64,000 nucleotides of DNA from Escherichia phage phiLLS. The DNA is taken from sequence record NC_047822.1. One strand, 5' to 3'. Below, piece after piece: positions 29,270 to 47,723 of this stretch. Positions within the stretch are counted from its first letter, which is position 1; every line of letters begins with the position of its first letter. A program made the position numbers and the translations under genes. The notes below the pieces were generated by a model, which made no database searches, had not been told where the DNA came from, and worked only from the letters and a program-made list of their open reading frames with translations.

Positions 29270-29462
29270 TACACCCTCCTTCTCTAACTAAGACTACTAT
29301 TATAACTCATTCGAGGGCGGATGTCAATATAATTTTTCTCTTAGATATTGTATTTTGATCTGTGCTAAGAAAATTGATCAGAATGTCAAAATTTTATTGA
29401 CACCACCATAACTTTTGTATAAGATATATACATAACTTAAAAAATTTGACAAGGAAATAAAA

Positions 29463-29954
29463 ATGAACACTGAAATAACACAAGACCTACTAAGAACCTA
29501 CTTTGACTATAAAGATGGAGAATTGTTTTACAAACCAACCTATAAAACCCCTGCGGGAAGAATATCCAAAAAAGCAGGTAAATCTGCCAGACTAACTCCG
29601 TGTAACGGGTACTATCGTATAAATGTACCAAGAATAGGTGTACAGAAAGAACATAGGATGATTTTCCTATATCATGAAGGATACCTACCAGAAGTAGTAG
29701 ATCATATTGATAGGGATAAAGAAAATAATAGGATAGAGAACCTTAGGGCATCTAATCTTCAGGACAACGCTATTAATCGCTCCATAAGTAAGAGTAATAC
29801 CTCTGGTATTGTGGGTGTCCATTATGATGAATCGTATGGTAAGTGGGTTGTAACGTATAGGGGTAAGTACTTTGGAAGATTTGATACCAAAGAAGAAGCT
29901 GCCGAAGTTAATGCTAATGTTCGTGCCCTTGATCAAACCCGTATAAATAGTTGA
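29463..29954 (+). CDS. HNH homing endonuclease with AP2-like DNA-binding domain
   Basis: 163 aa; VDHIDRDKENNRIENLRASN HNH motif; paralog of 33690, 37181, 54193 ORFs. Confidence 0.8.
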   Translation: MNTEITQDLLRTYFDYKDGELFYKPTYKTPAGRISKKAGKSARLTPCNGYYRINVPRIGVQKEHRMIFLYHEGYLPEVVDHIDRDKENNRIENLRASNLQDNAINRSISKSNTSGIVGVHYDESYGKWVVTYRGKYFGRFDTKEEAAEVNANVRALDQTRINS

Positions 29955-30037
29955 GTATCTAATATCACACATCTCACGTTAAAAGCAAGCAAATTTTTTA
30001 TTTAAATGCAATATCATAGGCTTATTTAAAATTGTAG

Positions 30038-30066
30038 TTGCTTTTTACTGTATATATTGGTATAAT
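30038..30066 (+). promoter_or_regulatory. sigma70-type early promoter
   Basis: TTGCTT-17-TATAAT. Confidence 0.55.
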
Positions 30067-30139
30067 ATATTTGTAAGTTGATAAACAAGATCTTTTTGTT
30101 GATCCTCTGTTAGCGAAGTACACTATAGGAGTGTTATTT

Positions 30140-30892
30140 ATGGGAAAAGCACGTCAAAAAAGAGAGAACCGCAATGGTTCAAGAAAGCGTGGCAACAAAT
30201 ATGAGAATAACGTAATTCAGGCTGATTTTTCTAATGATTACGCTAACCCAGTTGCTAAATCCCTAGTAGGTAAAAACCGCGAGCAAAAATCATATATCAA
30301 TATGATCAAGAACAACACAGTGACTGTGGGTATCGGTGAGCCAGGTACTGGTAAAACCTTTATCCCGTCCGTTCTTGCAGCTCAGGAACTAGTAGACATT
30401 CACTCAGATATTGAGCAAGTGATTCTCGTACGTCCTAATGAACCTCTAGGTAAGTCTCTTGGTATGCTTCCTGGTGATCTAGCGGAAAAGCTAGAGCCTT
30501 GGTTGGAGCCAATAGCTGATGGTATGAAATGGGCCATCGGCGATCATGCATATAAGGGATATGTCGAACGTCAGAAAATTAAATTTTTGGCTATCGAACA
30601 TGCTCGTGGCAGAACTTTCAACAACTCCTATGTAATTGTCGATGAAGCTCAGAATATTTCCGTTGAGGCAATGATTTGTCTCCTAACTCGTGTAGGACAA
30701 GACTGCCGTTTAATTATCTGCGGAGATATAGCTCAGAAAGACATTAAAGGTGACTCAGGTCTAGCACTCCTTATGGAAGTCTATGGGAAATACGAAAATG
30801 CCCCATTCTCAATGATCGAATTGATTGATAACGTTCGTTCTGTTGAGTCTAAAGCATTCTATGACATTTTTAAAGACATGGGGAAGGTGTAA
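30140..30892 (+). CDS. phoH: PhoH-like ATPase
   Basis: Walker A GEPGTGKT, Walker B VIVDEAQN; AGGAG SD before ATG at 30140. Confidence 0.85.
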   Translation: MGKARQKRENRNGSRKRGNKYENNVIQADFSNDYANPVAKSLVGKNREQKSYINMIKNNTVTVGIGEPGTGKTFIPSVLAAQELVDIHSDIEQVILVRPNEPLGKSLGMLPGDLAEKLEPWLEPIADGMKWAIGDHAYKGYVERQKIKFLAIEHARGRTFNNSYVIVDEAQNISVEAMICLLTRVGQDCRLIICGDIAQKDIKGDSGLALLMEVYGKYENAPFSMIELIDNVRSVESKAFYDIFKDMGKV

Positions 30893-30893
30893 T

Positions 30894-31115
30894 ATGGGAA
30901 ACGTAGTTCATCTGAGCCGTAAAACTAAAATACATCGTACTTCACTGAGTGCTGCTAATATGATTACACGTAAGGAAGGGGAAGAAAGTCCTAAGACAAC
31001 CCTAGCGTGGAAAATTGTAACCTCAAATCCAAATAAACCATTCAATTATAACGAGCTGAGCACCTCCATAGATATTTTATTAAAAGAAGTAGCTAGAGCT
31101 AAAGTAATTGAATAA
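30894..31115 (+). CDS. hypothetical protein
   Basis: 73 aa; start MGNVVHL with AAGGTG SD. Confidence 0.45.
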   Translation: MGNVVHLSRKTKIHRTSLSAANMITRKEGEESPKTTLAWKIVTSNPNKPFNYNELSTSIDILLKEVARAKVIE

Positions 31116-31257
31116 GCTAAAAAGCTAGACTGGTAATATATAGGGCCTGGGTATGAAAATACTCGGGCCTTTTCTATCAGAAAATTTTATTTGCCTAATG
31201 ACCGATAATAAAATAGAATATTCCTTAAATCCTGATAACTATAAAAAGGAAAGCCAA

Positions 31258-33588
31258 ATGAGCCATCGCATTGAAAAAGTAATTAAACGTGACGGTACTG
31301 TAGAAGACTTTGCTCCTGAAAAACTCAATGGTTGGGCAGAGTATGGTTGCAAAACAGTTGATGTAAGTTGGTCAGCCATTACTATGGCTGCTCAAAAAAC
31401 TCTGCCTAAAGGGGTTGTAGATTCCGATACTCTGATGGATGCATTAATTAAAGCTGCTGAAAGTCTTATCAAAGATAATCCAGCATACGATGTGCCAGCA
31501 AAGGAATTACGTCTTGCGCAAATGCGTAAACGCCTTTATGATTCTTTCGAACCACCCTCTCTACGCTTCTTCCATGACCATATGGTTAGCGTAGGTGCAT
31601 GGGAAGATATGAGTGCATGGATTACCGATGAGCAATTTGAAGCTCTGAATCAGGTTATAGACCACGATCGTGACCGTCTTTTTACTAGTGGTGGGCTGAA
31701 ACAGTTCTTTGATAAGTATTCCCGTCGTAACATAGCCACTGGTGAAATTTACGAAACCCCGCAGTTTGCCTACATGGGTATGGCAATGGCGATGTTATCT
31801 CAACCTAACTGGACAATTCTAGATGCAATCGACCTCTACAACGCAATGTCACTCCACAAAATCAACGTTCCTACGCCGCCACTGGTTGGTCTGCGCTCTA
31901 GTGACCGTGGATTTGCTAGTTGTTGCCTCGTGGATTCCACTGACACGTTGGATTCAATCGACACCGCCGAGCACATCGTCTTCAAAATGGTCGCAGCCAG
32001 AGCGGGAATCGGGTATCATCTTGAAAGCAGATCAATTGCTGATCCGGTGCGAAATGGGGCATTCCCGCATTCCGGAAAACTGCCATATTATCGACACATT
32101 GACCGCTCAGTAAAGGCCAATACTCAGCAAACTCGTGGTGGTTCTGCTACAGTGTCTTATCCATACTTCGACCCTGAAATCATTCAATTGATGCAGGTTA
32201 AGCAACAACGTGCTACAGATGAGAATAAAATCGATAAGATGGATTATTCTCTGAGCTTCAACAATCTTTTACTAAAACGTTATCTTAAAAACGAAGATAT
32301 TACGCTAATGTCATACTTCTATGCTCCAGAAGTTCATGAAGCGTTTTATAGTGATGACGAGGCTAAATTTGAAGAAATCTACGTGGCAGCGGAGAAACGT
32401 GTGGCATCTCTTACAAAGATCGACCACGAAGGAAAAACAGTTCCTGCAGCTCCTAAAGTCTCTGCAAAAGAAATCCTAGATACTTGGCTACGTATCCGAA
32501 TGGAAACAGGACGTATGTATGCTCATCACATCGGGGAATCTAATCGTCACGGTAACTTCCTTGATCCAATCCGTATGACAAACCTTTGTGTTGAAATTAC
32601 TCAGCCTACGCGCCCGTTCCATCATATCACAGAACTGTATAAGACAAAAGAGCAGCTTGATCAAATGAAGCCGGAGGATATTGGTGAAGTATCTCTGTGT
32701 AACTTAGGTGGTGTTGTACTGGGGCGCATGGAATCTCTGGCTGAGTGGGAAAAAACTTGCTACATCCTCCTGAAATTCGTTGATACAATTATTGAAATTC
32801 AGGATTATCCGTTCCCAACTATGGAATATACGGCTAAGAAACGTCGTAATGTTGGTATTGGCCTAATGAACGCAGCAGGTGCAATGGCAGCAGAAGGTCT
32901 GGCTTATGAAGGTATTGAAGCCCGTAACTGGATTCACCGTGAGGCTGAAAAACTGTCCTACTTCCTGCATAAAGCCTCTGTACGCCTAGCTAAAGAACAG
33001 GGTGCATGTGAGTGGTTTGATCGTACTAAACCATCTAAAGGAATTCTGGTAATCGACACGTACAAGAAAACTGTTGATGAACTGGTATCCGTAGGTCTAG
33101 AAATGGATTGGGAGTCTCTGCGTGCAGATATTCTGAAATACGGTATGCGTAACTCTGTTCTGACTGCTCAGATGCCAGGAGAAAGTTCTTCTGTTCTGTT
33201 AGGTGTTACTAATTCTATTGAACCGCCTCGTAAGATTGTATCTATCAAGGGTAGTGCAGTGAATAAAGTAATTGCAATTGCTCCGGGTGCAACCGATTGG
33301 GAAACGTTAATGAGCTATAAACTGGCTTATGATGTAGATCGTATCGAGTGGATCAAATGGGTAGCAACTATGCAGAAATTCTTCAGTCAGTCTATCAGTA
33401 CGAATATGTACTATGACTACACCAAGTTTGAGAATGAAATCATTCCTGGCCCAGTAGTAGTTCGTGATTTCATGACTGCTGTTAAGTATGGGTGGAAGAC
33501 TTTCTACTACGCAAACTTCAACACCGCAAATGGTGGGGGTGCTGGAGAAGAAGCAGCCGGTTGTGCATCCGGTGGTTGTACTATTTAA
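31258..33588 (+). CDS. nrdA: ribonucleoside-diphosphate reductase large subunit (class I RNR alpha)
   Basis: N-terminal ATP-cone (IKRDGTVEDF), catalytic core motifs, C-terminal Cys pair; start MSHRIEK with SD. Confidence 0.9.
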   Translation: MSHRIEKVIKRDGTVEDFAPEKLNGWAEYGCKTVDVSWSAITMAAQKTLPKGVVDSDTLMDALIKAAESLIKDNPAYDVPAKELRLAQMRKRLYDSFEPPSLRFFHDHMVSVGAWEDMSAWITDEQFEALNQVIDHDRDRLFTSGGLKQFFDKYSRRNIATGEIYETPQFAYMGMAMAMLSQPNWTILDAIDLYNAMSLHKINVPTPPLVGLRSSDRGFASCCLVDSTDTLDSIDTAEHIVFKMVAARAGIGYHLESRSIADPVRNGAFPHSGKLPYYRHIDRSVKANTQQTRGGSATVSYPYFDPEIIQLMQVKQQRATDENKIDKMDYSLSFNNLLLKRYLKNEDITLMSYFYAPEVHEAFYSDDEAKFEEIYVAAEKRVASLTKIDHEGKTVPAAPKVSAKEILDTWLRIRMETGRMYAHHIGESNRHGNFLDPIRMTNLCVEITQPTRPFHHITELYKTKEQLDQMKPEDIGEVSLCNLGGVVLGRMESLAEWEKTCYILLKFVDTIIEIQDYPFPTMEYTAKKRRNVGIGLMNAAGAMAAEGLAYEGIEARNWIHREAEKLSYFLHKASVRLAKEQGACEWFDRTKPSKGILVIDTYKKTVDELVSVGLEMDWESLRADILKYGMRNSVLTAQMPGESSSVLLGVTNSIEPPRKIVSIKGSAVNKVIAIAPGATDWETLMSYKLAYDVDRIEWIKWVATMQKFFSQSISTNMYYDYTKFENEIIPGPVVVRDFMTAVKYGWKTFYYANFNTANGGGAGEEAAGCASGGCTI

Positions 33589-33620
33589 TAAAAACAAGGA
33601 GATCTTCGGGTCTCCTTTTT
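33589..33620 (+). terminator. rho-independent terminator
   Basis: ggagatcttcgggtctcc hairpin + TTTTTC. Confidence 0.65.
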
Positions 33621-33634
33621 CTTTGAAATTTTAC

Positions 33635-33663
33635 TTGCTAATCGCTATCAGATTTGCTATAAT
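33635..33663 (+). promoter_or_regulatory. sigma70-type early promoter
   Basis: TTGCTA-17-TATAAT. Confidence 0.55.
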
Positions 33664-33689
33664 ATCTTCATTAATTAGGGAGATATAAT

Positions 33690-34190
33690 TTGATTACGCA
33701 AGAAGAATTAAAACTTTTATTGGATTATGGCCCAATAAAAGGAATCTTTATATGGAAAGAACGAAATCCAGATAAAGGTGGATTTAACAAACAATTCGCA
33801 GGAAAAGTAGCAGGAACATATGATGATCTTGGCTACCTACGAATTAAGATTAACGGTGTGCAATATTTAGCGCATAGATTGGCCTTCCTTTTCGTAAAAG
33901 GATATATGCCAGAATTAGTAGACCATAAAGACCGTAATCCTAGTAATCTAGCTTGGGACAACCTTAGAGAAGCTACCAATTCTCAAAATATAATGAACTC
34001 AGCTGCTAGATCAGATAATAAACTAGGACTAAAGAACATAAGAATCAAGGGAAACTCATATCAGGTACGAATAGGCAAGAATGGCAAATCGTACACCAAG
34101 ACTATGAAATCTCTTGAAGAAGCCATAGAATGGCGGGATACTAAACTAGCTGAACTACACCAAGAATTTGCTAACAATGGAGAAGATTAA
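33690..34190 (+). CDS. HNH homing endonuclease (AP2-like domain), free-standing between nrdA and nrdB
   Basis: 166 aa; VDHKDRNPSNLAWDNLREAT HNH motif; TTG start with GGGAG SD. Confidence 0.8.
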   Translation: MITQEELKLLLDYGPIKGIFIWKERNPDKGGFNKQFAGKVAGTYDDLGYLRIKINGVQYLAHRLAFLFVKGYMPELVDHKDRNPSNLAWDNLREATNSQNIMNSAARSDNKLGLKNIRIKGNSYQVRIGKNGKSYTKTMKSLEEAIEWRDTKLAELHQEFANNGED

Positions 34191-35335
34191 TGACGACTTT
34201 ACTTAACCTAGCGTGGGATCATACTAATCCTGAACTTTTCTTAGGTGACTCCCTGGGTATTGCTGACTATGTACGAGTAGCCCACCCTGAGTTAGAACGT
34301 CTAGCACTGCTACAGCGTTCCCAATTCTGGACTGAGACAGAAATTAGTCTAGAGAGCGACAAAAAACAATGGCCTAATCTCCAACGAGAAATTCAGGAAA
34401 TTACACTCCTGAACTTAGCATGGCAGACTCAAACTGATTCCTTTATCAGTCGTGCCCCTGAAGCAGCTATTATGCCGCTTGTAAGTCGTCCAGAATTGGA
34501 AGGTATGCTCAAACAGTGGAGCTATTTTGAAGACCTGCATAGTCGTGCTTATAGCAATATTATTCGTAATGTTCTGACTGATCCAGCAGAATTTATTGAT
34601 TCTGTAACCAAAAACCAAGAAGCATTCGCACGAATCGCTGATTCTGTTGAACTATTCGATGAACTGTACCAGTTAGGTCAGTATTTCATCGCAGTACGCG
34701 ATCATCGTGGCGACAATACATATCCAGAAACTGAGTTCCCTGAAGTTAAACGTGAAACTCAGGCTAAACTATTAGACGCTTACTTTGCTATCTATGGTCT
34801 GGAAGCAATGCAGTTTTACGCATCCTTTGCATGTACCTTTGCACTAGCAGAGAACGATATTCTGCAAGGTATTGCTAAAAATCTGCAATTAATCGCTAAA
34901 GATGAGGCTCTGCATACTCAGATGTCCAAAGCAATCATCCAGATTATGTTCCAGCAGTTTGACAAAGACCTGGTGGATGAAGCCGTGGCTAAAGCACCAG
35001 CACAGCTCCTGAAAACTCTGAAAACTGAAATTGAATGGGGTCATTTCATTTTCAAAGGTCGTAGTCTGATTGGCTTGAATGCAGAACTTCTAGAAGAATA
35101 TTTGTACTTTGTGGGGCGTAATGCATTTATGCACATCGGTGTAGAATGGCCTAGTCATTTACCAGTAATCACCAAAAATCCTATTCCGTGGATCATGAAC
35201 TGGTTGGATACTACTTCTCTACAGCCTGCTCCACAAGAAATCCAGATTGGTGCAGCCTACCGTGTAGGTCAGGTAACTGAGACCTCTACTGATACTCTGA
35301 AAGATCTGGGCAATGAATTTGGAGATTTCTTATGA
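34190..35335 (+). CDS. nrdB: ribonucleoside-diphosphate reductase small subunit (class I RNR beta)
   Basis: 381 aa; di-iron ligand helices (EDLHSRAYS, EALHTQ). Confidence 0.9.
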   Translation: MTTLLNLAWDHTNPELFLGDSLGIADYVRVAHPELERLALLQRSQFWTETEISLESDKKQWPNLQREIQEITLLNLAWQTQTDSFISRAPEAAIMPLVSRPELEGMLKQWSYFEDLHSRAYSNIIRNVLTDPAEFIDSVTKNQEAFARIADSVELFDELYQLGQYFIAVRDHRGDNTYPETEFPEVKRETQAKLLDAYFAIYGLEAMQFYASFACTFALAENDILQGIAKNLQLIAKDEALHTQMSKAIIQIMFQQFDKDLVDEAVAKAPAQLLKTLKTEIEWGHFIFKGRSLIGLNAELLEEYLYFVGRNAFMHIGVEWPSHLPVITKNPIPWIMNWLDTTSLQPAPQEIQIGAAYRVGQVTETSTDTLKDLGNEFGDFL

Positions 35336-35865
35336 TTACAGCAATGTATGCAGTTGGGCCGAATGGGGAGTTCGGCCTCCGCGGTAAACTTCCATGGGGT
35401 TCCTTCAAAGAAGAACTAGATGCTTTCTATTCTCAACTGGACGTGTTGAATCCAGATAACATCATCATTGGTGCGGGTACTTATTTAGCTCTTCCATACG
35501 CCGTTAGAGAACGTATGATTGGAGCTTCTGACCTATTTATTCGTGCTGATCGTCCACTGCCAGATGATATTACACATGATATTTACACCCCAATTTCTAA
35601 GATTGGGGATGCTTTACCTACTTTTCTGAAAGATCAGCAGACAGTAGTTCTAGGTGGGGCTAACCTTCTTCTAGAAATGTATATTCATGGACATATTGAA
35701 AGTGCTTTTGTATCCACAATCTTTAGTGATCAAAAACTAGAGGCAGATGTACATCTGGATAATACGATTCTAGATTACAACTATGAATCTACTCGTTTAG
35801 TTTACGCAACTGGCGCAAACAGTGATAACAGCCTGCGATTTGTACAGGAATTGGTTACTTATTAA
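35332..35865 (+). CDS. folA: dihydrofolate reductase
   Basis: 177 aa; N-terminal MITAMYAVGPNGEFGLRGKLPW DHFR signature. Confidence 0.85.
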   Translation: MITAMYAVGPNGEFGLRGKLPWGSFKEELDAFYSQLDVLNPDNIIIGAGTYLALPYAVRERMIGASDLFIRADRPLPDDITHDIYTPISKIGDALPTFLKDQQTVVLGGANLLLEMYIHGHIESAFVSTIFSDQKLEADVHLDNTILDYNYESTRLVYATGANSDNSLRFVQELVTY

Positions 35866-36704
35866 TGCAACAATACTTAAAAATTTTGACAGATGTAATT
35901 TTACTAGGTGAACCACGTAACGATCGTACAGGGACAGGCACAGTTTCAATTTTTGATTCCTATGCTAAGTTCGATCTACGTGAAGGGTTCCCGGCTGTAA
36001 CTACTAAACGCCTGGCCTGGAAATCAGTAGTAGGAGAACTCTTATGGTTCTTGTCTGGTTCCACAAATCTCCATGATCTACGTGTATTCACCTTTGGTCG
36101 TGACGAAGGACAGTGGACCATCTGGACTCCAAATTATGAAGACCAAGCTATAAGTATGGGGTATGATAAGGGTAATCTAGGACCAGTATATGGTAAACAA
36201 TGGCGCAACTTTGGTGGACGAGATCAGATCCTAGAACTCATTGAGGGTCTCAAGAATAATCCACATGGTCGTAGACACCTAGTATCTGCATGGAACGTAG
36301 CTGAACTTGATAAAATGGCATTACCACCCTGTCACTACGGCTTCCAGTGCTATGTAAGTAACGATGGATACCTAGATCTTAAATGGACACAACGTTCTGT
36401 AGATTGTTTCCTCGGTTTACCTTTCAATATTGCTAGTTATGCTTTATTAACGCATATATTAGCAAAACTGACAGGATTAAAACCTCGTTATCTTATCTTT
36501 AGTGGCGGTGATACTCATATCTATAATGACCACATGGAACAGGTAGAAGAACAGGTAAAACGTAAACCTCGTGCTTTACCTACTCTAGTAATGCCAGAGT
36601 TTGTAGATCTTTACGATTTATTAGAAAATAATACGGCAGCTTGGTCCTTCCAGCTTGAAGGATATGATCCGCATCCGGCTCTTAAAGCTAAAATGTCCTC
36701 TTAA
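35865..36704 (+). CDS. thyA: thymidylate synthase
   Basis: 279 aa; RRHLVSAWNV...ALPPCHYGFQCYV active-site motif. Confidence 0.9.
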   Translation: MQQYLKILTDVILLGEPRNDRTGTGTVSIFDSYAKFDLREGFPAVTTKRLAWKSVVGELLWFLSGSTNLHDLRVFTFGRDEGQWTIWTPNYEDQAISMGYDKGNLGPVYGKQWRNFGGRDQILELIEGLKNNPHGRRHLVSAWNVAELDKMALPPCHYGFQCYVSNDGYLDLKWTQRSVDCFLGLPFNIASYALLTHILAKLTGLKPRYLIFSGGDTHIYNDHMEQVEEQVKRKPRALPTLVMPEFVDLYDLLENNTAAWSFQLEGYDPHPALKAKMSS

Positions 36705-36706
36705 CT

Positions 36707-36735
36707 TAAATAGCCCTTCGGGGCTATTATATTTG
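36707..36735 (+). terminator. rho-independent terminator
   Basis: tagcccttcggggcta hairpin + T-rich tail. Confidence 0.6.
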
Positions 36736-36743
36736 AAATTGTA

Positions 36744-36773
36744 TTTGCTTATTAAGTACAATTTCAAATATAA
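36744..36773 (+). promoter_or_regulatory. sigma70-type early promoter
   Basis: TTGCTT-18-TATAAT. Confidence 0.55.
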
Positions 36774-36804
36774 TATACTCAATAAGTACAAAAAGGATAA
36801 TAAA

Positions 36805-37188
36805 ATGAGTAAAGAAATTGAATTAGAACAAGCCCTTCTGAGTTACTCCAATTACTTGCAGAGTGATAAAGAAACTATTACTAAGGAACAGGTATTATTA
36901 ATACTAGACTCTATCACTTCTAAATTCAGGACTTTAGAAGACTACTACTCTGTAGGCAATGGAGATGAGAAGGTAGAGTTACGTCTAAATCTTCTAGAAG
37001 ATATGGGTTGGGACGAGGAAGATCAATTAGGATATTTAGGTATATCTACAGAAATTCTAGAAAATACAGAGCATGAAAATATACTTGAAGTAAAGAGCAA
37101 AAGTGCTATTCGATATAATACTTATGGTACAGGTATTACAGGAATAAAAGCATTACTTAGTATAGACATAGGATGGTTAGATGAGTAA
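36805..37188 (+). CDS. hypothetical protein
   Basis: 127 aa from MSKEIELE with AAGGA SD. Confidence 0.5.
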   Translation: MSKEIELEQALLSYSNYLQSDKETITKEQVLLILDSITSKFRTLEDYYSVGNGDEKVELRLNLLEDMGWDEEDQLGYLGISTEILENTEHENILEVKSKSAIRYNTYGTGITGIKALLSIDIGWLDE

Positions 37189-37729
37189 AAAGTTACCTAG
37201 CCAAGAAAGATTAAAAGAAATACTAATCTATGACCCAGATACTGGTATATTTACTAATAAGGTAAGTCGTGGTAGGGGAGGAAAAGCAGGTTCGCTAGCT
37301 GGATACCTAAGAAAAGACGGCTATATAACTATTAAGATAGATAAAATAGATTATTTAGCGCATAGGTTAGCCTTTCTATACATGACAGGATCAATACCTG
37401 ATTTAATAGACCACAAAAATAGAATTAGGTCAGATAATAGGTGGATAAATCTAAGAGAAGCTACAAGCCAGTCTAATAACAGAAATTGTACCGCATCGAG
37501 TAAATCTGGATATCTAGGTGTACACTGGAACAAACAACTACAGAAATGGCAAGTACAGGTGATTGATAATAATGGTAAAAATATTTACGGGGGTGTTTTT
37601 GACTACTTAGACCTAGAAAGTGCGGTCATAAAGGCTAATGAACTAAGAAAAACACTTCATGGTAACGAAGCAGTTATAGAAGATTTCTATACCAACTATT
37701 ACCCACCAATAGAGGAACTTAATAAGTGA
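37181..37729 (+). CDS. HNH homing endonuclease (AP2-like domain)
   Basis: 182 aa; IDHKNRIRSDNRWINLREAT HNH motif. Confidence 0.8.
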   Translation: MSKKLPSQERLKEILIYDPDTGIFTNKVSRGRGGKAGSLAGYLRKDGYITIKIDKIDYLAHRLAFLYMTGSIPDLIDHKNRIRSDNRWINLREATSQSNNRNCTASSKSGYLGVHWNKQLQKWQVQVIDNNGKNIYGGVFDYLDLESAVIKANELRKTLHGNEAVIEDFYTNYYPPIEELNK

Positions 37730-38202
37730 GCGTTTTCCACATTTACACAGATGGTGCTTGTAAGTCTAACCCAGGTCCAGGTGCTTGGGGTTTTATTGTC
37801 TATGATGATAACGACGATCGTTTAGGTTCTAAATCTGGATATAGTCCTAAAACTACAAATAATGAGATGGAACTCACGGCTATTGTAGAGGCTCTACGTT
37901 GGTCAGTTAAAAAAGATAATAGACCAATTGTTATCTATACTGACTCTGCTTATTGCAAAAATGGCATGGAAAGTTGGATGTTTTCTTGGCAAAGGAAAGG
38001 CTGGAAGAAAGCAGATGGTGAAGTTCCTCTTAATCTAGAACTTTGGCAGGAAGCATTTAAATTAACACAGCAGTATATCAACTTTCATAATACTAACCCT
38101 ACCTTTATTAAGGTTAAAGGACATTCTGGTATTAGTGGTAATGAAGCTGTAGACGCCTTATGTAACACAGTTATTACTGAAGCTGAAATGGCTGAGATGT
38201 AA
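37726..38202 (+). CDS. rnhA: ribonuclease H
   Basis: 158 aa; IYTDGACKSNPGPGAWG and YTDSAY, GHSG motifs. Confidence 0.85.
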   Translation: MSVFHIYTDGACKSNPGPGAWGFIVYDDNDDRLGSKSGYSPKTTNNEMELTAIVEALRWSVKKDNRPIVIYTDSAYCKNGMESWMFSWQRKGWKKADGEVPLNLELWQEAFKLTQQYINFHNTNPTFIKVKGHSGISGNEAVDALCNTVITEAEMAEM

Positions 38203-38222
38203 TAAATAAATTAAAAATTCTC

Positions 38223-38251
38223 TTGCTTAAATCTCTCTAATTTAGTATAAT
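38223..38251 (+). promoter_or_regulatory. sigma70-type early promoter
   Basis: TTGCTT-17-TATAAT. Confidence 0.55.
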
Positions 38252-38278
38252 ATTTGTATTGAAAGTGAGGAGGGCTTT

Positions 38279-38557
38279 ATGCGGATTTATAACTCAAATT
38301 CATTAGGATTTAAACCATTGAGAAAACGTGCACAATCACCTCGTCAAATAAGAAAGGCTAATATTGGTGAGCCAGAAACACGTCTTCCACCTCCTCCAGA
38401 ACAACGTTTAGTTTATCTGGATGAAGAGTTAGCTGAACGCGAAAGAAAAGCTCAAGAAGAGATTGAGCGTAAGAAAATGTGTACTGCTCCAGCGTATAAT
38501 AAAGGAGCGTATCAATATGTTTCCGATGCAGAACAAGCCAAGATGGTTGGTAGATAA
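38279..38557 (+). CDS. hypothetical protein
   Basis: 92 aa ORF with GAGGAGGG SD. Confidence 0.5.
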   Translation: MRIYNSNSLGFKPLRKRAQSPRQIRKANIGEPETRLPPPPEQRLVYLDEELAERERKAQEEIERKKMCTAPAYNKGAYQYVSDAEQAKMVGR

Positions 38558-38573
38558 TTTTTAAAAAATTCAT

Positions 38574-38602
38574 TTGCTAAACGCTTCAAATTCTCGTATA
38601 AT
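38574..38602 (+). promoter_or_regulatory. sigma70-type early promoter (canonical copy of repeated module)
   Basis: AAAAATTCATTTGCTA -35, 17 bp, TATAAT, then CATAAATTGA. Confidence 0.65.
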
Positions 38603-38640
38603 ATACTTCATAAATTGATAAACAAAAAGGAAAATAAATA

Positions 38641-41830: not shown

Positions 41831-42148
41831 ATGACTTTTCATATTTTGATTGATGATGTGCGTAATCTTCACGGAATGGACATTATCATTCGAACCCCAG
41901 AAGCCGCTGTCGAGTTTCTGAATAAAACTGATACCACAGGCCACTTCGTTTATATGGATAATGACTTGGCTGTAGATGGTATGGAAGGTTATCAAATTCT
42001 TCGTTTACTCTTAGAATTTGGGCAGAGACCAAAGAAAGTGGTACTAGTAACCTCGAACCCAGTAGCTAAGCAACATATGCGTAATGATTTGCTTGACTTA
42101 GGGTACAAAGAAAGCCCCAATCGTGTTGAATATGATTGGCAGGAGTAA
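41831..42148 (+). CDS. stand-alone CheY-like receiver (REC) domain protein
   Basis: 105 aa; ILIDDV acidic pocket, FVYMDNDL (phospho-acceptor Asp region), VVLVTS (conserved Thr/Ser), downstream Lys; alignable to CheY by eye. Confidence 0.5.
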   Translation: MTFHILIDDVRNLHGMDIIIRTPEAAVEFLNKTDTTGHFVYMDNDLAVDGMEGYQILRLLLEFGQRPKKVVLVTSNPVAKQHMRNDLLDLGYKESPNRVEYDWQE

Positions 42149-42603
42149 AAAGAATGAAGGCAGCTTTGCTTTTAGTAGCTGCCCTTACCTTCAGCTTTAG
42201 TAGTCAGGCATCGCACGATGCAAAAGAAATAGATTGCATTGCTAAAAATATCTATTTCGAAAGTCGTGGTGAGGGCATAAAGGGAATGACGGCGATTGCA
42301 CACGTTACTAAAAACCGTGTAAACTCCGGTAAATTCCCAGATTCCTACTGTAAAGTAGTATATCAGTCTAACCAGTTCTCTTGGGTATCTAAGAGACCAA
42401 AAGTTGATAAAACTGATGAGGCTTGGCAAACCGCTAAGAATTTAGCTAGAGTGATATACTACGTTGATTTACCACAAGATCCTACACATGGAGCACTATA
42501 CTTCCATAGTGGTAAAGATAAACCTTACTGGACAAAGAAGTTTAAGAAAACAACTAAGATTAAGGGACATACGTTTTATAAACCTGTTGTCACTAAAACT
42601 TAA
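42136..42603 (+). CDS. secreted SleB-like cell-wall hydrolase
   Basis: 155 aa; N-terminal signal peptide; NIYFESRGEG...AHVTKNRV...YCKVVYQSNQFSW. Confidence 0.65.
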   Translation: MAGVKRMKAALLLVAALTFSFSSQASHDAKEIDCIAKNIYFESRGEGIKGMTAIAHVTKNRVNSGKFPDSYCKVVYQSNQFSWVSKRPKVDKTDEAWQTAKNLARVIYYVDLPQDPTHGALYFHSGKDKPYWTKKFKKTTKIKGHTFYKPVVTKT

Positions 42604-42671: not shown

Positions 42672-42842
42672 ATGAAATCAGTTGTAATTATTGGTGTTAA
42701 CACTCGCGGTATTCGTACTACGAAAATTGTTAAAACTTCTAACGTTGCTGAGATCACTACGAACCCTAAAAAGTTTGATTTCGCCAAAGTCTCAGCAGTT
42801 ATGACAGAACAATCTTTTAACCAAGCGTTAGGAATGAAATAA
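42672..42842 (+). CDS. hypothetical small protein
   Basis: 56 aa ORF, TAATG overlap with next gene. Confidence 0.4.
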   Translation: MKSVVIIGVNTRGIRTTKIVKTSNVAEITTNPKKFDFAKVSAVMTEQSFNQALGMK

Positions 42843-43285
42843 TGGAAGAGAATATTTTAGATGTTTTGCGTAGAGCTTTGCAGGATTCTAAGTTTAATGG
42901 TTCTGATAAAGAAGTCGCTAAAAGCTATCAGACCATAATCGGGGATCTTCAGCGTATTGATAAAGATTTCATCACTTCTGAACAATTTGTGTCTTATCTC
43001 AAAGCTCAACTAAAAAGCATTAACCAGATGAAAGCTAAACTTCATGGTCAAGATCTTGATAGTTATAGCTTGCAGTCCGCTCAGTATGAATACATTCTAA
43101 ATAAGTGGTTGCAGGAGTATCTGCCTCCTCAGTTATCTGATACTGAGATTCGTAAATACTTTGCAGAATTAGTTAAGCTAAACCCTGGAATTACAAAAGG
43201 TATGCTGATGAAAGCGATTAAGGAAGAATTTCCTGGGCGTTACGATGGTGGTACTGCTGCTCAGATTGCTGGCGAATTTAATTAA
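42842..43285 (+). CDS. GatB/YqeY-domain-like protein
   Basis: 147 aa; resemblance to YqeY/GatB C-terminal domain by eye. Confidence 0.4.
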   Translation: MEENILDVLRRALQDSKFNGSDKEVAKSYQTIIGDLQRIDKDFITSEQFVSYLKAQLKSINQMKAKLHGQDLDSYSLQSAQYEYILNKWLQEYLPPQLSDTEIRKYFAELVKLNPGITKGMLMKAIKEEFPGRYDGGTAAQIAGEFN

Positions 43286-43293
43286 AAATTTAT

Positions 43294-43322
43294 TTGCTAA
43301 ATGCTTATAAATTCTGTATAAT
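43294..43322 (+). promoter_or_regulatory. sigma70-type early promoter preceding ORF-free region
   Basis: TTGCTA-17-TATAAT. Confidence 0.55.
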
Positions 43323-43339
43323 ATATTCATAAATTAGAG

Positions 43340-44135
43340 AACAGCGAGCCGATTACGCTGAACTTGTCTTAATGTAAGATGCGTCGAGCACTAAGATTCG
43401 TTGAATAGAGTCGGTGGGTTAGTTGTAAAACTAGTACACAGGGGGCGGCAATCCCGGTTAGTGGCTAGAACGTGTAAAATGAGGCGTCTGAAACCTCTCC
43501 CCTAAACTCTTCTCTAATTTATAAATAGTGGGGTGTGGAAATCACTTATGTAGTAACACTGCCGTCCTAGTATAATTGGTATTATCAAGCCGTAACCGGT
43601 GGAAGATGTAGGTTCGAATCCTACGGTCGGTAAGAACTGGATAACTGATGCTTTTAACGTAAAAGCTTCCGAGGTTAGTTGCGCACTGCCTAAACCACGC
43701 GGTAGTTGGTTCCAGACTAACCAACCAGTCTGCTGAATAGTTTTATTACGATTTAACTATGTCCAGGCTAAAGAAGAACTTTAGAAGGTATTCTAGGATA
43801 GTGAAGTTCTTTCTCCATATCGGAGTAGTTTTTCAAGCTATCCACAAAGTGGGAAATGCTGACATGAGAGATGTCACTAATGGTGCACAATAGCACAGGT
43901 AATTCGCGATAACTCCTGTTGAGTAGCAGCAAAAGGCGGGAAGTCATGACCCCAAGCCTAACCGAGTCCTCAATATACCGCAGGACATAACCACTAAGTC
44001 ACCCTGACTTAAACTGGAAAATAATAGACGTTACTGTATTTTGTCTTGAAATACTTAATGAGTGAGACTTATGACTCTCCCGGTATCGTCTGTATTTTTA
44101 AGAGTTTTTTACGAGAGTTCTTAAAAATACTTAAA
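43340..44135 (+). ncRNA. candidate non-coding RNA region (promoter-driven, ORF-free, tRNA-like fragments)
   Basis: ~800 bp with no ORF above ~26 codons; internal T-arm-like GTAGGTTCGAATCCTAC at 43608-43624; several hairpins. Confidence 0.3.
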
Positions 44136-44207
44136 CGGGGTGTAGTCTAAGGGAGAGGCAGGAGTCTTCTAAATTCCTTTATGCAGGTTCGAATCCTGTC
44201 ACCTCGG
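44136..44207 (+). tRNA. tRNA-Arg (anticodon TCT)
   Basis: 7-bp acceptor, D/anticodon/T arms fold; TTCGAAT T-loop; CCA encoded. Confidence 0.8.
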
Positions 44208-44244
44208 CCAATTTTATTAACTGTAACTAAAACAAAGGAAATAT

Positions 44245-45192
44245 ATGTTTGCTACTAAAAATATGAAAGAACTGACTTCTGAGCAGAAAGTAATTCGTAC
44301 TATTAAACGTTGGGGTATTGGTGCTGTAGTTGGTTTAGCAGGTTTAGTCCTAGCTTTTAATTCATATACTATTGTTTCTGATGGTACGGTTAAAACCCAA
44401 ACATTCCTGGGTAAAGTAGACCCTAATCCTGTATTACCTGGTTTTCATCTTGTAAACCCATTTGCATCTTTCGATACTTTTAGTACAAAAGACATTGCTG
44501 TAAAATTAGATAAACTTCAGGTTCCTAGTCAGGATAAGTTTAAATCCACTGTTGACCTGACTGTTATGTTGCAGTTTGATGGTTCTAAGGCACCAATTAA
44601 CCGTATTAACGCAGGTACTCAGGACCAGGCGCTAGACAAGTATGTAACTGAAAAATTACTGTCTACTATTCGTGAGTTTGGTAAATCTGTACCTAAAGCA
44701 CAAGATTTATTTGATGCTAAAATTCAGGCTCAATTGCAAACTGCAATTCAACAGGAAGTTGAAGAGTATGCACGCCCATATGGTTACACAGTTAAGCAGG
44801 TGTTTCTTCAGGATATTACTTTGCCACCAGTAATTATGGAGCAAGTACAAAATACAAAAGTTCGTGAAGAACAAGTTAATGCGGCTAAAGCTGAATTGGC
44901 TCGTGTTGAACAAGAAGCACAGCAGAAAGTCAAACAAGCTGAAGCAGATCGTGAAGCACGTAACAACCAAGCTATCGCTAATGAACGTGACGCCGATGCT
45001 AAGCTGTATGCAGCTAAGAAAGAAGCTGAAGCTAACGCCGCATTGCAACGTACCATTACTCCTGAGATGATTCGTTGGAAGCAATTGGAAGTCGAAATGA
45101 TTCGTGCTCAGAAATATCAAGGTGGTGTACCTCAGACTGTGGTAGGTACTGGCTACGATGGTCAAATGATCATGGATATGCGTAATAAATAA
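44245..45192 (+). CDS. SPFH/band-7 (HflC/prohibitin-like) membrane protein
   Basis: 315 aa; N-terminal TM helix, SPFH-like core, long Ala/Gln/Glu-rich coiled coil. Confidence 0.7.
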   Translation: MFATKNMKELTSEQKVIRTIKRWGIGAVVGLAGLVLAFNSYTIVSDGTVKTQTFLGKVDPNPVLPGFHLVNPFASFDTFSTKDIAVKLDKLQVPSQDKFKSTVDLTVMLQFDGSKAPINRINAGTQDQALDKYVTEKLLSTIREFGKSVPKAQDLFDAKIQAQLQTAIQQEVEEYARPYGYTVKQVFLQDITLPPVIMEQVQNTKVREEQVNAAKAELARVEQEAQQKVKQAEADREARNNQAIANERDADAKLYAAKKEAEANAALQRTITPEMIRWKQLEVEMIRAQKYQGGVPQTVVGTGYDGQMIMDMRNK

Positions 45193-45214: not shown

Positions 45215-45252
45215 TAAGCCCTGCGTTCCCTGGAGAGCGCAGGGCTTTTCTG
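45215..45252 (+). terminator. rho-independent terminator
   Basis: agccctgcg...cgcagggct hairpin + TTTTCT. Confidence 0.7.
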
Positions 45253-45269
45253 TACTTAAGATAAAAGAA

Positions 45270-45302
45270 AAGCCCCTAAGTCTTTCTACTAGGGGCTTTA
45301 TT
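45270..45302. terminator. bidirectional terminator hairpin
   Basis: agcccctag...ctaggggct hairpin flanked by A-run and T-rich tail. Confidence 0.6.
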
Positions 45303-45516
45303 GTTTGGTTTCTTAGAACCATATACTCTTGTTACAGCAACCACCCATACGGGAGGCCAATCTTGACTGAAAATCTACTCTAGGGGGCAGGATAAGAGTA
45401 GGCTTAAAGGCAAAGGGATTGAACGCCGGTATTTGTGTAAACATTGCTGGAGAGCAACAACGTGCTACAGGCATTGGGCAGCACGAAACAGATTTTCTGC
45501 AACACATAATTTCTCC

Positions 45517-45933
45517 TTAGGAGTTATTACCACCATTTTGAGCTTTTGCAACTTGGCTTTGGCAGAAGCTATTAAACTTACCCATAAGTGATACAAGCTG
45601 TTTCCCATCCTCTGTCTTTGCGAAGTCTTCGAAAAGGGCTAGTACTGCCTGTCCTTCCGCAGAAACCTGCGGTTGTTGGGTTTGTTGCTGAACTTGCTGC
45701 TGAGCCACCTGTTGCTGCATTTGTTGAGGCATTTGCGACTGCCCGCTCATTTGCTGCATCATTTGCATAGGACTCACACTTCCAGGGTTTTGCTGGAGTT
45801 GTTGCTGCATCTGTTGCGCTTCTGCTAAACGCTGTTGCAATTGTTGTAAGTAGGGGTTATCCAGACCCGGAATGGGCTGCTGGGAGCCCCTACTTTGATT
45901 AAGTCCGTTATTTACAAAACCATATTTACTCAT
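45517..45933 (-). CDS. Gln-rich low-complexity protein (hypothetical)
   Basis: 138 aa; poly-Q/QQM repeats; co-oriented with 45955-46947. Confidence 0.55.
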   Translation of the reverse strand: MSKYGFVNNGLNQSRGSQQPIPGLDNPYLQQLQQRLAEAQQMQQQLQQNPGSVSPMQMMQQMSGQSQMPQQMQQQVAQQQVQQQTQQPQVSAEGQAVLALFEDFAKTEDGKQLVSLMGKFNSFCQSQVAKAQNGGNNS

Positions 45934-45954
45934 AATGGGCTCCTCCCCCTAATA

Positions 45955-46947
45955 TTAAGCCGGCAGTTTAGCCTGCAGACCAGCCAGAGTCTGAGTGATA
46001 GCACCAAGACTTACAGCGATTTGATTAATTACCTGACCGTTAGCACCGTTACCCGCAGCGATTGCTTCACGTAGGCGACATGCATCTAACTCATCCTGAA
46101 TACGAGCAGTAGTTACACCAGCGATAGCAGTCTGAAGTTCACAGCAACATTCAGCGATCTGACGTTCCAGAGAGTTCTGGTTAGCACACATCTGAGCCTG
46201 AACAGCGGCAAACTGGTTATTAGTTTGTAAAGTCTGCTGGAAAGCGATCTGTGCAGAATCAAACTTATCTTGTGCACGAGCTATCTGATTAGCTGCGAAA
46301 GATTGATCAATCTGGCGAGAAAGATCGAACTGACCCTGAATAACGTTGCGAGTTTCCTGACAGATCTGATTAGACAGATTAGCACCTGTACCATAGATCG
46401 TAGTTAGTACAGACTGAGTATCACGGCTCTGGTTTTGGGATGTCTGGCTAAACCCATTGTTAACTGCGCTTAAAACAGCTCCAGTACCCTGGTTAGCTTC
46501 TGTACGAGTAGTGTTAATAGCTGCTAGAATACTAGCGGTATCTTGGTTCTGAAGTACTGCATCAACTGCGGTACCATCACCAACTACACCACGTCCACCG
46601 AATCCACCGAAACCACCGAATCCGCCTGTTAATAGAGCACCGATTAGGATAGCTCCGAATAGTCCCATACCTTCACCACCGAAAGCACCTGCGTTTGCTG
46701 GGTAACCACCCAGTAGGCCAGGGAAGCCACTAGTAAATACGTTTACTGGTTCTTGCATTTTATGTTTTCCATATTTATGACAATGTTCATCGTCATCTTC
46801 TTCATCATCGTGTTCACGATGTTTTTCTTCGTAGGCTCTGACCTTCTCCCACTTTTTCTTATCTGATTCCTCGTGACGGTGCAGTTCTGCTGCAACGCTA
46901 GCGACGGTCTCAGGACTCTTAGCTACTTCTTCTGTCATTTTTGACAC
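45955..46947 (-). CDS. Gly-rich / Gln-Asn-Ala-rich hypothetical protein with His/acidic N-terminus
   Basis: 330 aa; strong SD (AGGAGGTG); GGFGGFGGFGG hydrophobic Gly segment; C-terminal half predicted helical. Confidence 0.6.
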   Translation of the reverse strand: MSKMTEEVAKSPETVASVAAELHRHEESDKKKWEKVRAYEEKHREHDDEEDDDEHCHKYGKHKMQEPVNVFTSGFPGLLGGYPANAGAFGGEGMGLFGAILIGALLTGGFGGFGGFGGRGVVGDGTAVDAVLQNQDTASILAAINTTRTEANQGTGAVLSAVNNGFSQTSQNQSRDTQSVLTTIYGTGANLSNQICQETRNVIQGQFDLSRQIDQSFAANQIARAQDKFDSAQIAFQQTLQTNNQFAAVQAQMCANQNSLERQIAECCCELQTAIAGVTTARIQDELDACRLREAIAAGNGANGQVINQIAVSLGAITQTLAGLQAKLPA

Positions 46948-47145: not shown

Positions 47146-47174
47146 TTGCTTGAATGCTAAATTCTCTGTATAAT
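47146..47174 (+). promoter_or_regulatory. sigma70-type early promoter
   Basis: TTGCTT-17-TATAAT. Confidence 0.55.
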
Positions 47175-47204
47175 ATATCTATAAATTTGAAAGAGGAACC
47201 AAAT

Positions 47205-47723
47205 ATGAATGTTGATGAGCTAACACAGCACCTCTTATCTAGAGGATTTGATACAGATAAATATCATTGCTGGTTAAGTCCGGAAGGATGGCTAACAGTC
47301 CCGTTGTATGACTTCTCTGGGATGTTGAGGGGCTATCAAACTTATAATCCTTCTGCTCCAAAAGGTCATGGTAAGTGCCCCTTTGAAGCTAAATACTTTA
47401 CTTATTCTACTACCCAGTGTGTATGGGGACTAGAAACTCTCAATGGAGATGAAAAAGTAGTATTGATTGCTGAATCTGTATTTAAGGCAGTTGCGTTACA
47501 TAATGCTGGTTATCCAGCCCTAGCAATGTTGGGTTCTTCTCCAGGAAAAGCGTTATTAAAGCAACTGAAATTACTACCTTTTAAATTGGTAGCTGTCGGA
47601 GATAATGATCCTGCGGGTGAAAAATTTGCTAGAAAATTAAACGGCTTTGTTTCTCCCGTAGATGTGGATGAGATGTCTACCGAAAACTTGAAAAATTTTC
47701 TTGCTATGAAGCTAAATTTCTAA
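47205..47723 (+). CDS. TOPRIM-domain protein (hypothetical)
   Basis: 172 aa; VVLIAESVFKAV ... AVGDNDPAGEKFARKL resembles TOPRIM E...DxD core. Confidence 0.5.
   Translation: MNVDELTQHLLSRGFDTDKYHCWLSPEGWLTVPLYDFSGMLRGYQTYNPSAPKGHGKCPFEAKYFTYSTTQCVWGLETLNGDEKVVLIAESVFKAVALHNAGYPALAMLGSSPGKALLKQLKLLPFKLVAVGDNDPAGEKFARKLNGFVSPVDVDEMSTENLKNFLAMKLNF

Follow-up and report, generated by a model that had tools for sequence, protein, structure and literature searches.

Proteins of the SPFH (Band 7) superfamily build membrane-associated cages, of which those of HflK/C, prohibitin, erlin, stomatin and flotillin have recently been solved, and the roles of these cages are still debated. The ectodomains of the prohibitins and erlins lie on the non-cytosolic side of their membranes, and to our knowledge all non-cytosolic SPFH cages with a known partner serve membrane-protein quality control (HflK/C with FtsH, prohibitin with m-AAA proteases, and erlin in endoplasmic-reticulum-associated degradation). 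In Escherichia coli, HflK and HflC face the periplasm and have no NfeD partner, whereas QmcA and YqiK face the cytoplasm and are encoded beside NfeD genes (PMC10434171); the cages of HflK/C surround FtsH hexamers at their periplasmic domains (PMC12048511). Among phages, the T4-like proteins 44RR ORF098c, Aeh1 ORF064c, and RB43 ORF139c were recognised as Band 7 proteins in 2006 (Nolan et al. 2006, PMC1524935), and the record of phage T5 describes T5.080 as a protein with one transmembrane domain that resembles Aeh1 ORF064c and 44RR ORF098c. We found no functional study of any phage SPFH protein in the literature, and the text of the HIDEN-SEQ preprint makes no mention of SPFH, T5-like phages, or Tequintavirus. 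Here we describe the T5.080 ortholog in a 64,000-nucleotide stretch of DNA from Escherichia phage phiLLS (sequence record NC_047822.1; the whole stretch is referred to as the window), which carries 21 tRNA genes, has ~39% G+C, and represents a Tequintavirus-type genome. The gene is real and already known, and it is moderately interesting as the source of a minimal, probably periplasm-facing cage under strong selection.

The gene occupies positions 44245-45192 of the plus strand (ATG start, stop codon included) and encodes 315 amino acids. A sequence-only reading of the window had proposed an SPFH/Band 7 membrane protein, a proposal to be abandoned if no SPFH profile matched, and on this point it was right: a profile search with Pfam Band_7 (PF01145) gave an above-threshold match at residues 52-225 (E=2e-17, 64.3 bits against a cutoff of 23.6), PHROG family phrog_200 matched from end to end (E=2e-86), and a structural model of the protein found SPFH proteins over its full length in a Foldseek search. 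The protein is 99% identical to T5.080 (YP_006908.1), the divergence between the two genes being synonymous only (synonymous divergence [dS], 0.43; nonsynonymous-to-synonymous ratio [dN/dS], 0.016), and tblastn recovered homologs in 738 phage records, all T5-like groups included; because of this strong constraint and wide occurrence, the open reading frame (ORF) is no chance one. The setting in T5 is the same, with the stable RNA "RNAX" and tRNA-Arg before the gene and the terminators and convergent T5.077-079 cassette after it, and the 4.3 kb around the gene in the window share 97 to 98% identity with many T5-like phages, SP15, FFH1, and slur09 among them. GenBank names for the T5-like gene include "SPFH domain / Band 7 family protein," "PHB domain-containing protein," and "regulator of protease activity HflC." Because T5-like and T4-like homologs carry SPFH/Band 7 labels in public records, the domain assignment is correct but not new; gene and domain have been in databases since 2005-2006, and as a genome-scan finding they add little.

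An AlphaFold2 monomer model built from a 56-sequence alignment (mean predicted local distance difference test score, 77.5) consists of a helix at residues 12-39, a strand-rich alpha/beta core at 41-192, an uninterrupted helix at 195-270, and a second helix at 273-291. The N-terminal transmembrane helix and long charged helix that had been noted from the sequence are both evident in this model, and the protein can be divided as follows:

44245..44313, plus strand: N-terminal tail, residues 1-23, with 6 K/R and 2 D/E; predicted to be cytoplasmic
44314..44373, plus strand: signal-anchor transmembrane helix, residues ~24-43, from hydropathy; without a lipobox and variable in sequence
44374..44820, plus strand: SPFH alpha/beta core, residues 44-192, from Pfam and the model; majority fraction 0.81, the highest of the protein
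44827..45054, plus strand: long helix rich in Ala, Glu, Lys, Arg, and Gln, residues 195-270, from the model, composition, and full-length Foldseek matches
45061..45189, plus strand: second helix (273-291) and conserved tail, together residues 273-315, from the model; majority fractions 0.73 and 0.68

Conservation is unevenly spread over this architecture. Among 56 homologs the mean majority fraction is 0.23 in the N-terminal tail and 0.50 in the anchor helix, compared with 0.68 to 0.81 in the ectodomain, and in T4-like homologs the first ~38 residues are replaced outright, with tblastn matches starting at residue 38-39. What the anchor helix retains is its hydropathy (mean Kyte-Doolittle value in a 19-residue window, 1.77 in the phiLLS protein and 2.22 across the family). 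Poor conservation of tail and helix, together with their replacement in T4-like phages, therefore indicates that the anchor is generic and that the conserved function resides in the ectodomain. The helix equivalent to residues 195-270 (CC1) forms the wall in solved SPFH cages, and by analogy with those cages residues 273-315 are a candidate cap-forming segment; the C-terminal tail within this segment is disordered in the monomer model and holds the invariant alignment positions G293, P296, and G301.

Two database labels would cast the protein in other terms, either as a lipoprotein, which is its PHROG and RefSeq name, or as a virion component, since a virion preparation was found to contain a distant Vi01-like homolog. 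The first label is wrong: a lipobox cysteine occurs in none of 120 homologs (pattern [LVI][ASTVI][GAS]C) and in none of 14 genome-contig copies from a scan of bacterial genomes (a looser PROSITE-type pattern), the phiLLS protein has no cysteine at all, and all of these proteins carry a hydrophobic signal-anchor helix instead. By eye, the AIGSC motif of a Morganella phage copy (P0115) is compatible with the looser pattern. As for the virion, a demonstrated structural role there would have spoken against the sequence-only reading, and none is indicated, though T5 virion proteomics was not consulted: the Vi01-like homolog accounted for 3 peptide retrievals against 196 to 311 for true structural proteins, T5.080 lies among the annotated early promoters and tRNA genes of T5, and the gene is unneeded for plaque formation. 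That either label is right is extremely improbable. The evidence on plaque formation comes from CRISPRi-ART knockdown of T5, in which T5.080 was scored "Not Fit" (mean guide fitness -4.28, p=0.85; PMC11879866 supplement); strongly conserved as it is, the gene can therefore be dispensed with during growth on laboratory E. coli. Two deletions of the T5 tRNA region, T5Mos (30661-38625; PMC11464382) and T5-123 (29191-32442), are uninformative on this question because they stop short of T5.080.

Fold comparisons place the protein broadly within the superfamily. A Foldseek search of the PDB with the AlphaFold2 model returned full-length alignments with probability 1.00 to erlin1/2 (E 1e-14), prohibitin (3e-13), HflK/C (2e-12), stomatin (1e-11), and QmcA (4e-10), with weaker matches to flotillin and vault protein, and every match was only 14 to 20% identical in sequence. 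In a sequence search of the PDB, the best match was E. coli QmcA (PDB 8z5g; 1.6e-6 with the single sequence, 3.5e-7 with a profile), followed by prohibitin-2 (8e-5), and HflK and HflC were absent from the matches at E<=0.01 even when the family profile was used. An NCBIfam scan likewise returned no family at E<=0.1, and hence no HflK or HflC model. Erlin and prohibitin ranked at least as high as HflK/C in the fold search, and the gene is single, without a paralogous partner, in the window and in every context examined. The more specific HflC-type assignment of the sequence-only reading is therefore not supported: the phage protein is a generic full-length cage-type SPFH scaffold with no special affinity to HflC.

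The orientation of the protein in the membrane can be predicted from charge. In 63 of 68 nonredundant family members the flank preceding the anchor helix has a higher net charge than the 15 residues that follow it, the two are equal in the other 5, and the bias is reversed in none (mean net charge, +2.2 against +0.4). By the positive-inside rule, this constitutes a moderately strong prediction that the tail is cytoplasmic and the SPFH ectodomain periplasmic. There is no NfeD gene near the SPFH gene in the window, in T5, Matisse, or Eps7, in five metagenomic or phage contexts, or in the chromosomes of Morganella and Providencia, and an SPFH-NfeD operon pair of the QmcA-YbbJ, YqiK-YqiJ, or stomatin-STOPP kind was ruled out, as no NfeD domain occurs among the neighbours examined. 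The phage protein thus resembles E. coli HflK/HflC in its N-terminal single-pass anchor, its predicted periplasmic ectodomain, its lack of an NfeD partner, and its order of SPFH domain, long helix, second helix, and tail, but it differs in being encoded by a single gene rather than as a heteromer of two paralogs, in its low identity (16 to 19%), and in its lack of a family-model match. The prohibitins (1/2) and erlins (1/2), its best fold matches, share the single N-terminal anchor; they differ as eukaryotic heteromers of 15 to 18% identity, and the likeness is at the level of the superfamily only. QmcA, the nearest PDB sequence match, forms a homo-oligomeric cage, but it faces the cytoplasm and is paired with NfeD (QmcA-YbbJ), whereas in the phage protein the charge bias is opposite and NfeD is missing from the neighbourhood.

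We propose, with a probability of about 40%, that the protein is a free-standing accessory membrane scaffold, a periplasmic homo-oligomeric dome that would enclose or exclude a host inner-membrane machine and that forms no module with its neighbours. In this proposal, the positively charged N-terminal tail would stay in the cytoplasm, the generic signal-anchor helix would cross the inner membrane, and the SPFH core, long helix, second helix, and conserved tail would enter the periplasm, as in HflK/C, the prohibitins, and the erlins. Numerous copies, aligned side by side, would close into a homo-oligomeric dome and so fence off part of the inner membrane, with the long helix as the wall of the dome and the conserved tail closing the cap; we propose a dome because every solved full-length SPFH protein assembles in this way, and we regard homo-oligomeric dome assembly as a moderately strong prediction by analogy. 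The machine enclosed or excluded would be a conserved one of the host inner membrane. The leading candidate is FtsH, which could be engaged via its small periplasmic domain, because the non-cytosolic SPFH cages with a known partner serve quality control and because HflK/C encloses FtsH; as a client, however, FtsH is a weak candidate, with roughly one chance in four or five of being the right one. The result would be an altered choice of which membrane proteins are degraded or stabilised during infection, and the benefit may arise only in natural hosts or under stress rather than in rich-medium laboratory culture. Modulation of FtsH, or the remodelling of membrane microdomains that the sequence-only reading also considered, is no more than a plausible analogy.

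Several points weigh against this proposal. The single argument for cage formation is fold analogy, and the single argument for the topology is the positive-inside rule. Nothing ties the protein to FtsH in particular: no HflK or HflC model matches it, by sequence it is nearer to QmcA and the prohibitins, and HflK/C is a heteromer of two paralogs, in contrast to the single phage gene. Since knockdown has no laboratory phenotype, an essential protease could be affected only subtly or conditionally. Finally, the neighbours of the gene in other phages suggest other themes, among them an antiholin rI, a SleB-like wall hydrolase, TerD/TelA, and NAD (nicotinamide adenine dinucleotide)-salvage genes.

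Beyond the T5-like phages, the family is spread over lineages that are otherwise unrelated. T4-like Slopekvirus, RB43-type, Cronobacter, Enterobacter, and Citrobacter phages carry homologs that match at ~83% identity across the aligned ectodomain and ~77% across the whole protein, Aeromonas T4-like phages carry homologs with ~60% identity, and further homologs occur in ~90-kb phages (FelixO1-like SE131 and Proteus phage J3S) and, from metagenomic contigs, in a phage type of 124 to 152 kb and another of 127 kb. The T4-like genes 44RR ORF098c, Aeh1 ORF064c, and RB43 ORF139c belong to the same clade (57 to 83% identity) but differ in the sequence of the N-terminal anchor and in genomic neighbourhood. 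Several records of 174 to 178 kb that are filed as bacterial contigs or as a Klebsiella "plasmid" contain the T4-like version of the gene (proteins P0028, P0053, and P0062), one of them being Flagellimonas marina NZ_JBHSCL010000010.1 (178 kb); judging from their size and the presence of the gene, these may be phage genomes under bacterial names. A HMMER scan of 1.84 billion representative sequences returned 1,982 proteins at E<=1e-3 and 326 at E<=1e-10, a small number that marks a distinct clade within a very large superfamily.

In a scan of one genome per bacterial species, copies with 57 to 60% identity were found in the chromosomes of several species of Morganella and Providencia. These copies stand alone in ordinary metabolic or transport neighbourhoods that differ between the two genera, with no phage, NfeD, or FtsH gene near those examined, and in a neighbor-joining tree (built without support values) they nest inside the clade of phage and metagenomic sequences, beside a distant T5-like contig. 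In all, the gene recurs with 57 to 83% identity in five or more unrelated lineages of virulent phages and in the Morganella and Providencia chromosomes, with different neighbours each time. Across lineages dN/dS is 0.07 to 0.12 with synonymous sites saturated, and the transfers are therefore old and the protein tightly constrained. A bolder version of our proposal, which we think unlikely, would make this the first viral SPFH cage with a defined job, a periplasm-facing homo-oligomeric dome that captures or walls off FtsH or another membrane machine, or blunts membrane-targeting abortive-infection effectors, and that has spread among five or more unrelated phage families and entered the Morganellaceae by a single capture.

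For the study of SPFH proteins in general, the phage family offers a simple test case, in that it involves a single gene, no partner, probably a homo-oligomer, and probably a periplasm-facing one. Although laboratory growth does not require it, selection has kept the protein nearly unchanged in phages that are unrelated. Its client, if found, would reveal the purpose of a minimal SPFH cage as well as a host membrane process that large virulent phages must control in nature. More immediately, the analysis offers corrections to existing descriptions: the protein is not a lipoprotein, it is not specifically HflC, and it forms no module with its neighbours.

The genomic contexts of the gene bear on what else a membrane scaffold could do. 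In the phage type of 124 to 152 kb, the gene lies directly after TelA, vWA-TerF-like, and TerD genes, an arrangement that would suit a scaffold that, like flotillin and PspA-linked SPFH proteins, organises or stiffens the inner membrane, keeping proton-motive force and membrane-bound biosynthesis going under the stress of infection until programmed lysis, without any specific protease client. SPFH proteins are reported to be linked to membrane-stress systems such as PspA in Bacillus, the stand-alone Morganellaceae copy implies that the protein is useful to an uninfected cell, and a conditional benefit would be compatible with the "Not Fit" score in the laboratory. Those bacterial SPFH proteins so far described as stress-linked face the cytoplasm, however, while the phage protein is predicted to be periplasmic; there is no PspA-like or NfeD partner nearby, and the adjacency to Ter genes is found in a single lineage only. 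We consider this role unlikely.

In two diverged groups of T4-like phages, the gene order is TK, Y05Q, antiholin rI, DUF5856, and the SPFH gene, followed by a NUDIX-cytidylyltransferase gene. The SPFH gene thus lies two genes after rI (Pfam Antiholin PF24205), and a SleB-like Hydrolase_2 protein bearing a signal peptide is encoded within a few genes of it in T5-like phages and in the unrelated 124- to 152-kb phage, which would fit a periplasmic dome that confines a holin, an antiholin, or a secreted wall hydrolase and thereby influences the time or place of envelope breach. The rI adjacency is probably inherited synteny within the T4-like phages, though, no lysis gene lies near the FelixO1-like, 127-kb, or chromosomal copies, and the Morganellaceae copies have no phage lysis system to regulate; a function in lysis timing is accordingly improbable. 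The hydrolase of the window is encoded at 42136-42603 on the plus strand (Pfam Hydrolase_2, E=2e-25), starts with a signal-peptide-like sequence, and corresponds to T5.083, named "endolysin"; a Hydrolase_2 gene lies two genes from the SPFH gene in the unrelated 124- to 152-kb phage and a few genes upstream of it in the distant T5-like contig.

Other neighbours concern NAD metabolism. In the T5-like phage Eps7, NMN adenylyltransferase and PnuC genes come next after the SPFH gene and share its strand, and in SE131 an nSTAND/AAA gene lies on one side of it and ProQ, PRPP-synthase, and NAMPT genes on the other. NAD-salvage genes occur within a few genes of the SPFH gene in four phage lineages (Eps7, Matisse, contig L003, and SE131), a proximity that may reflect shared accessory islands only. 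Because no neighbour is conserved across lineages, we treat the nearness of NAD-salvage, rI, Hydrolase_2, and Ter genes as a weak hint only.

A further alternative is that the protein is a competition factor, acting in superinfection exclusion or as a shield against host defences that damage the inner membrane. The gene is conserved, has moved between phage families, and can be spared on a laboratory strain poor in defences, the usual profile of an anti-defence or exclusion gene, and the context is suggestive in three ways: the accessory islands include NAD-salvage genes (NMNAT and PnuC in Eps7, a NUDIX-cytidylyltransferase in the T4-like phages, PRPP synthase and NAMPT in SE131), CRISPRi-ART assigns an anti-defence label to the neighbouring T5.076, and a distant Vi01-like SPFH gene sits beside an annotated superinfection-exclusion gene. 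Such adjacency is circumstantial, however; a PADLOC scan of the protein gave no match at E<=0.1, we found no experimental report of such a role in the literature, and the conserved Morganellaceae chromosomal copy lies outside any defence island, so that we rate this alternative as rather improbable. The T5.076-like gene of the window (47154-47723, plus strand) encodes a 189-amino-acid protein consisting of a Toprim domain only and is annotated as "DNA primase"; T5.076 was scored "Semi-Fit" and categorised as anti-defence (PMC11879866 supplement).

The remaining question is whether the gene works together with the elements on either side of it. The sequence-only reading had described it as lying directly after tRNA-Arg and converging on a Gly/Gln-rich cassette, and all of these elements were recovered in the window:

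43294..43322, plus strand: sigma-70-type promoter-like site (TTGCTA-17-TATAAT), from a consensus scan; positional equivalent of T5 P16-17
43330..44135 (boundaries approximate), plus strand: noncoding stretch equivalent to T5 stable RNA "RNAX," from the T5 annotation
44136..44210, plus strand: tRNA-Arg with anticodon TCT, from ARAGORN (Rfam tRNA, 49.3 bits); 34 nucleotides upstream of the SPFH start codon
44236..44239, plus strand: Shine-Dalgarno AGGA, 5 nucleotides before the SPFH-gene ATG, read directly from the sequence
44245..45192, plus strand: SPFH/Band_7 protein gene, ortholog of T5.080, from the ORF list, Pfam Band_7, phrog_200, and T5.080 identity
45216..45249, plus strand: intrinsic terminator of the SPFH gene, a 13-bp hairpin followed by UUUU, from folding and T5 alignment
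45262..45306, no strand assigned: second hairpin with A-run and T-run flanks, between the SPFH gene and the cassette, from folding, T5 annotation, and T5 alignment
45313..46947, minus strand: convergent cassette of T5.079-, T5.078-, and T5.077-like ORFs, from the ORF list (phrog_7894, phrog_8119)

By analogy with T5, the site at 43294..43322 would drive a transcription unit of RNAX, tRNA-Arg, and the SPFH gene. This unit ends at a terminator hairpin of -24.6 kcal/mol (z = -5.7), which none of 200 shuffled sequences equalled and which is kept in T5, and beyond it the second hairpin (~-16 kcal/mol on either strand) is the equivalent of an "efficient bidirectional rho-independent terminator" of T5. 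Three minus-strand ORFs converge on the SPFH gene (45313-45507, 45517-45933, and 45955-46947). Their products have 64 amino acids with 8 cysteines, 138 amino acids with 28% Gln (45517-45933), and 330 amino acids (45955-46947), and none of them has a Pfam match. The 330-amino-acid T5.077-like protein combines an acidic, His-rich N terminus with a Gly-rich hydrophobic segment (hydropathy 1.72) and a C-terminal half rich in Q, N, and A. A promoter-like site at 47028-47000 on the minus strand, matching T5 P12, precedes the cassette. Some records name the 138-amino-acid protein "cAMP-dependent protein kinase catalytic subunit," for which there is neither Pfam nor significant NCBIfam support.

It had been suggested that tRNA-Arg, the SPFH gene, and the cassette form one membrane-directed unit. 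The three are adjacent both in the window and in T5, and the Gly-rich hydrophobic segment of the T5.077-like protein could span a membrane. Yet the cassette is found in 221 phage records, essentially T5-like only, compared with 738 for the SPFH gene, and it is absent beside the T4-like, FelixO1-like, Eps7, and Morganellaceae chromosomal copies; in T5 it is served by a promoter of its own, and two terminators stand between it and the SPFH gene. The deletion in T5Mos also removes P12 and the 5' part of T5.077, and this phage is viable and keeps T5.080 (PMC11464382), while T5.077-079 were, like T5.080, "Not Fit" in CRISPRi-ART. Given that the neighbours differ in each lineage, a joint module is not supported and we hold it to be very unlikely. 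The SPFH gene is self-standing, the cassette forms a transcription unit of its own and is no functional partner, and tRNA-Arg is merely an upstream member of a tRNA-containing transcription unit.

A few smaller features of the locus can be added. A GCGC motif on the plus strand (45236-45240) is conserved at the position of T5's annotated major single-chain nick (45236/45237; consensus Pu^GCGC), and because it falls in the 3' arm of the SPFH-gene terminator hairpin, genome nick site and transcription terminator coincide. The RNAX-equivalent stretch, between the promoter-like site and tRNA-Arg, contains a tRNA-like element at 43561-43632 on the plus strand that scores 35.5 bits with the Rfam tRNA model (gathering score, 29) and is not called by ARAGORN. 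Farther upstream, two more plus-strand genes encode a protein with a cREC_REC "cyclic-phosphate processing receiver" domain (41831-42148, E=1.6e-14) and a YqeY/GatB-like protein (42842-43285; below the Pfam cutoff, named "tRNA amidotransferase" in PHROG). These two proteins, which flank the tRNA region, may relate to tRNA repair or charging.

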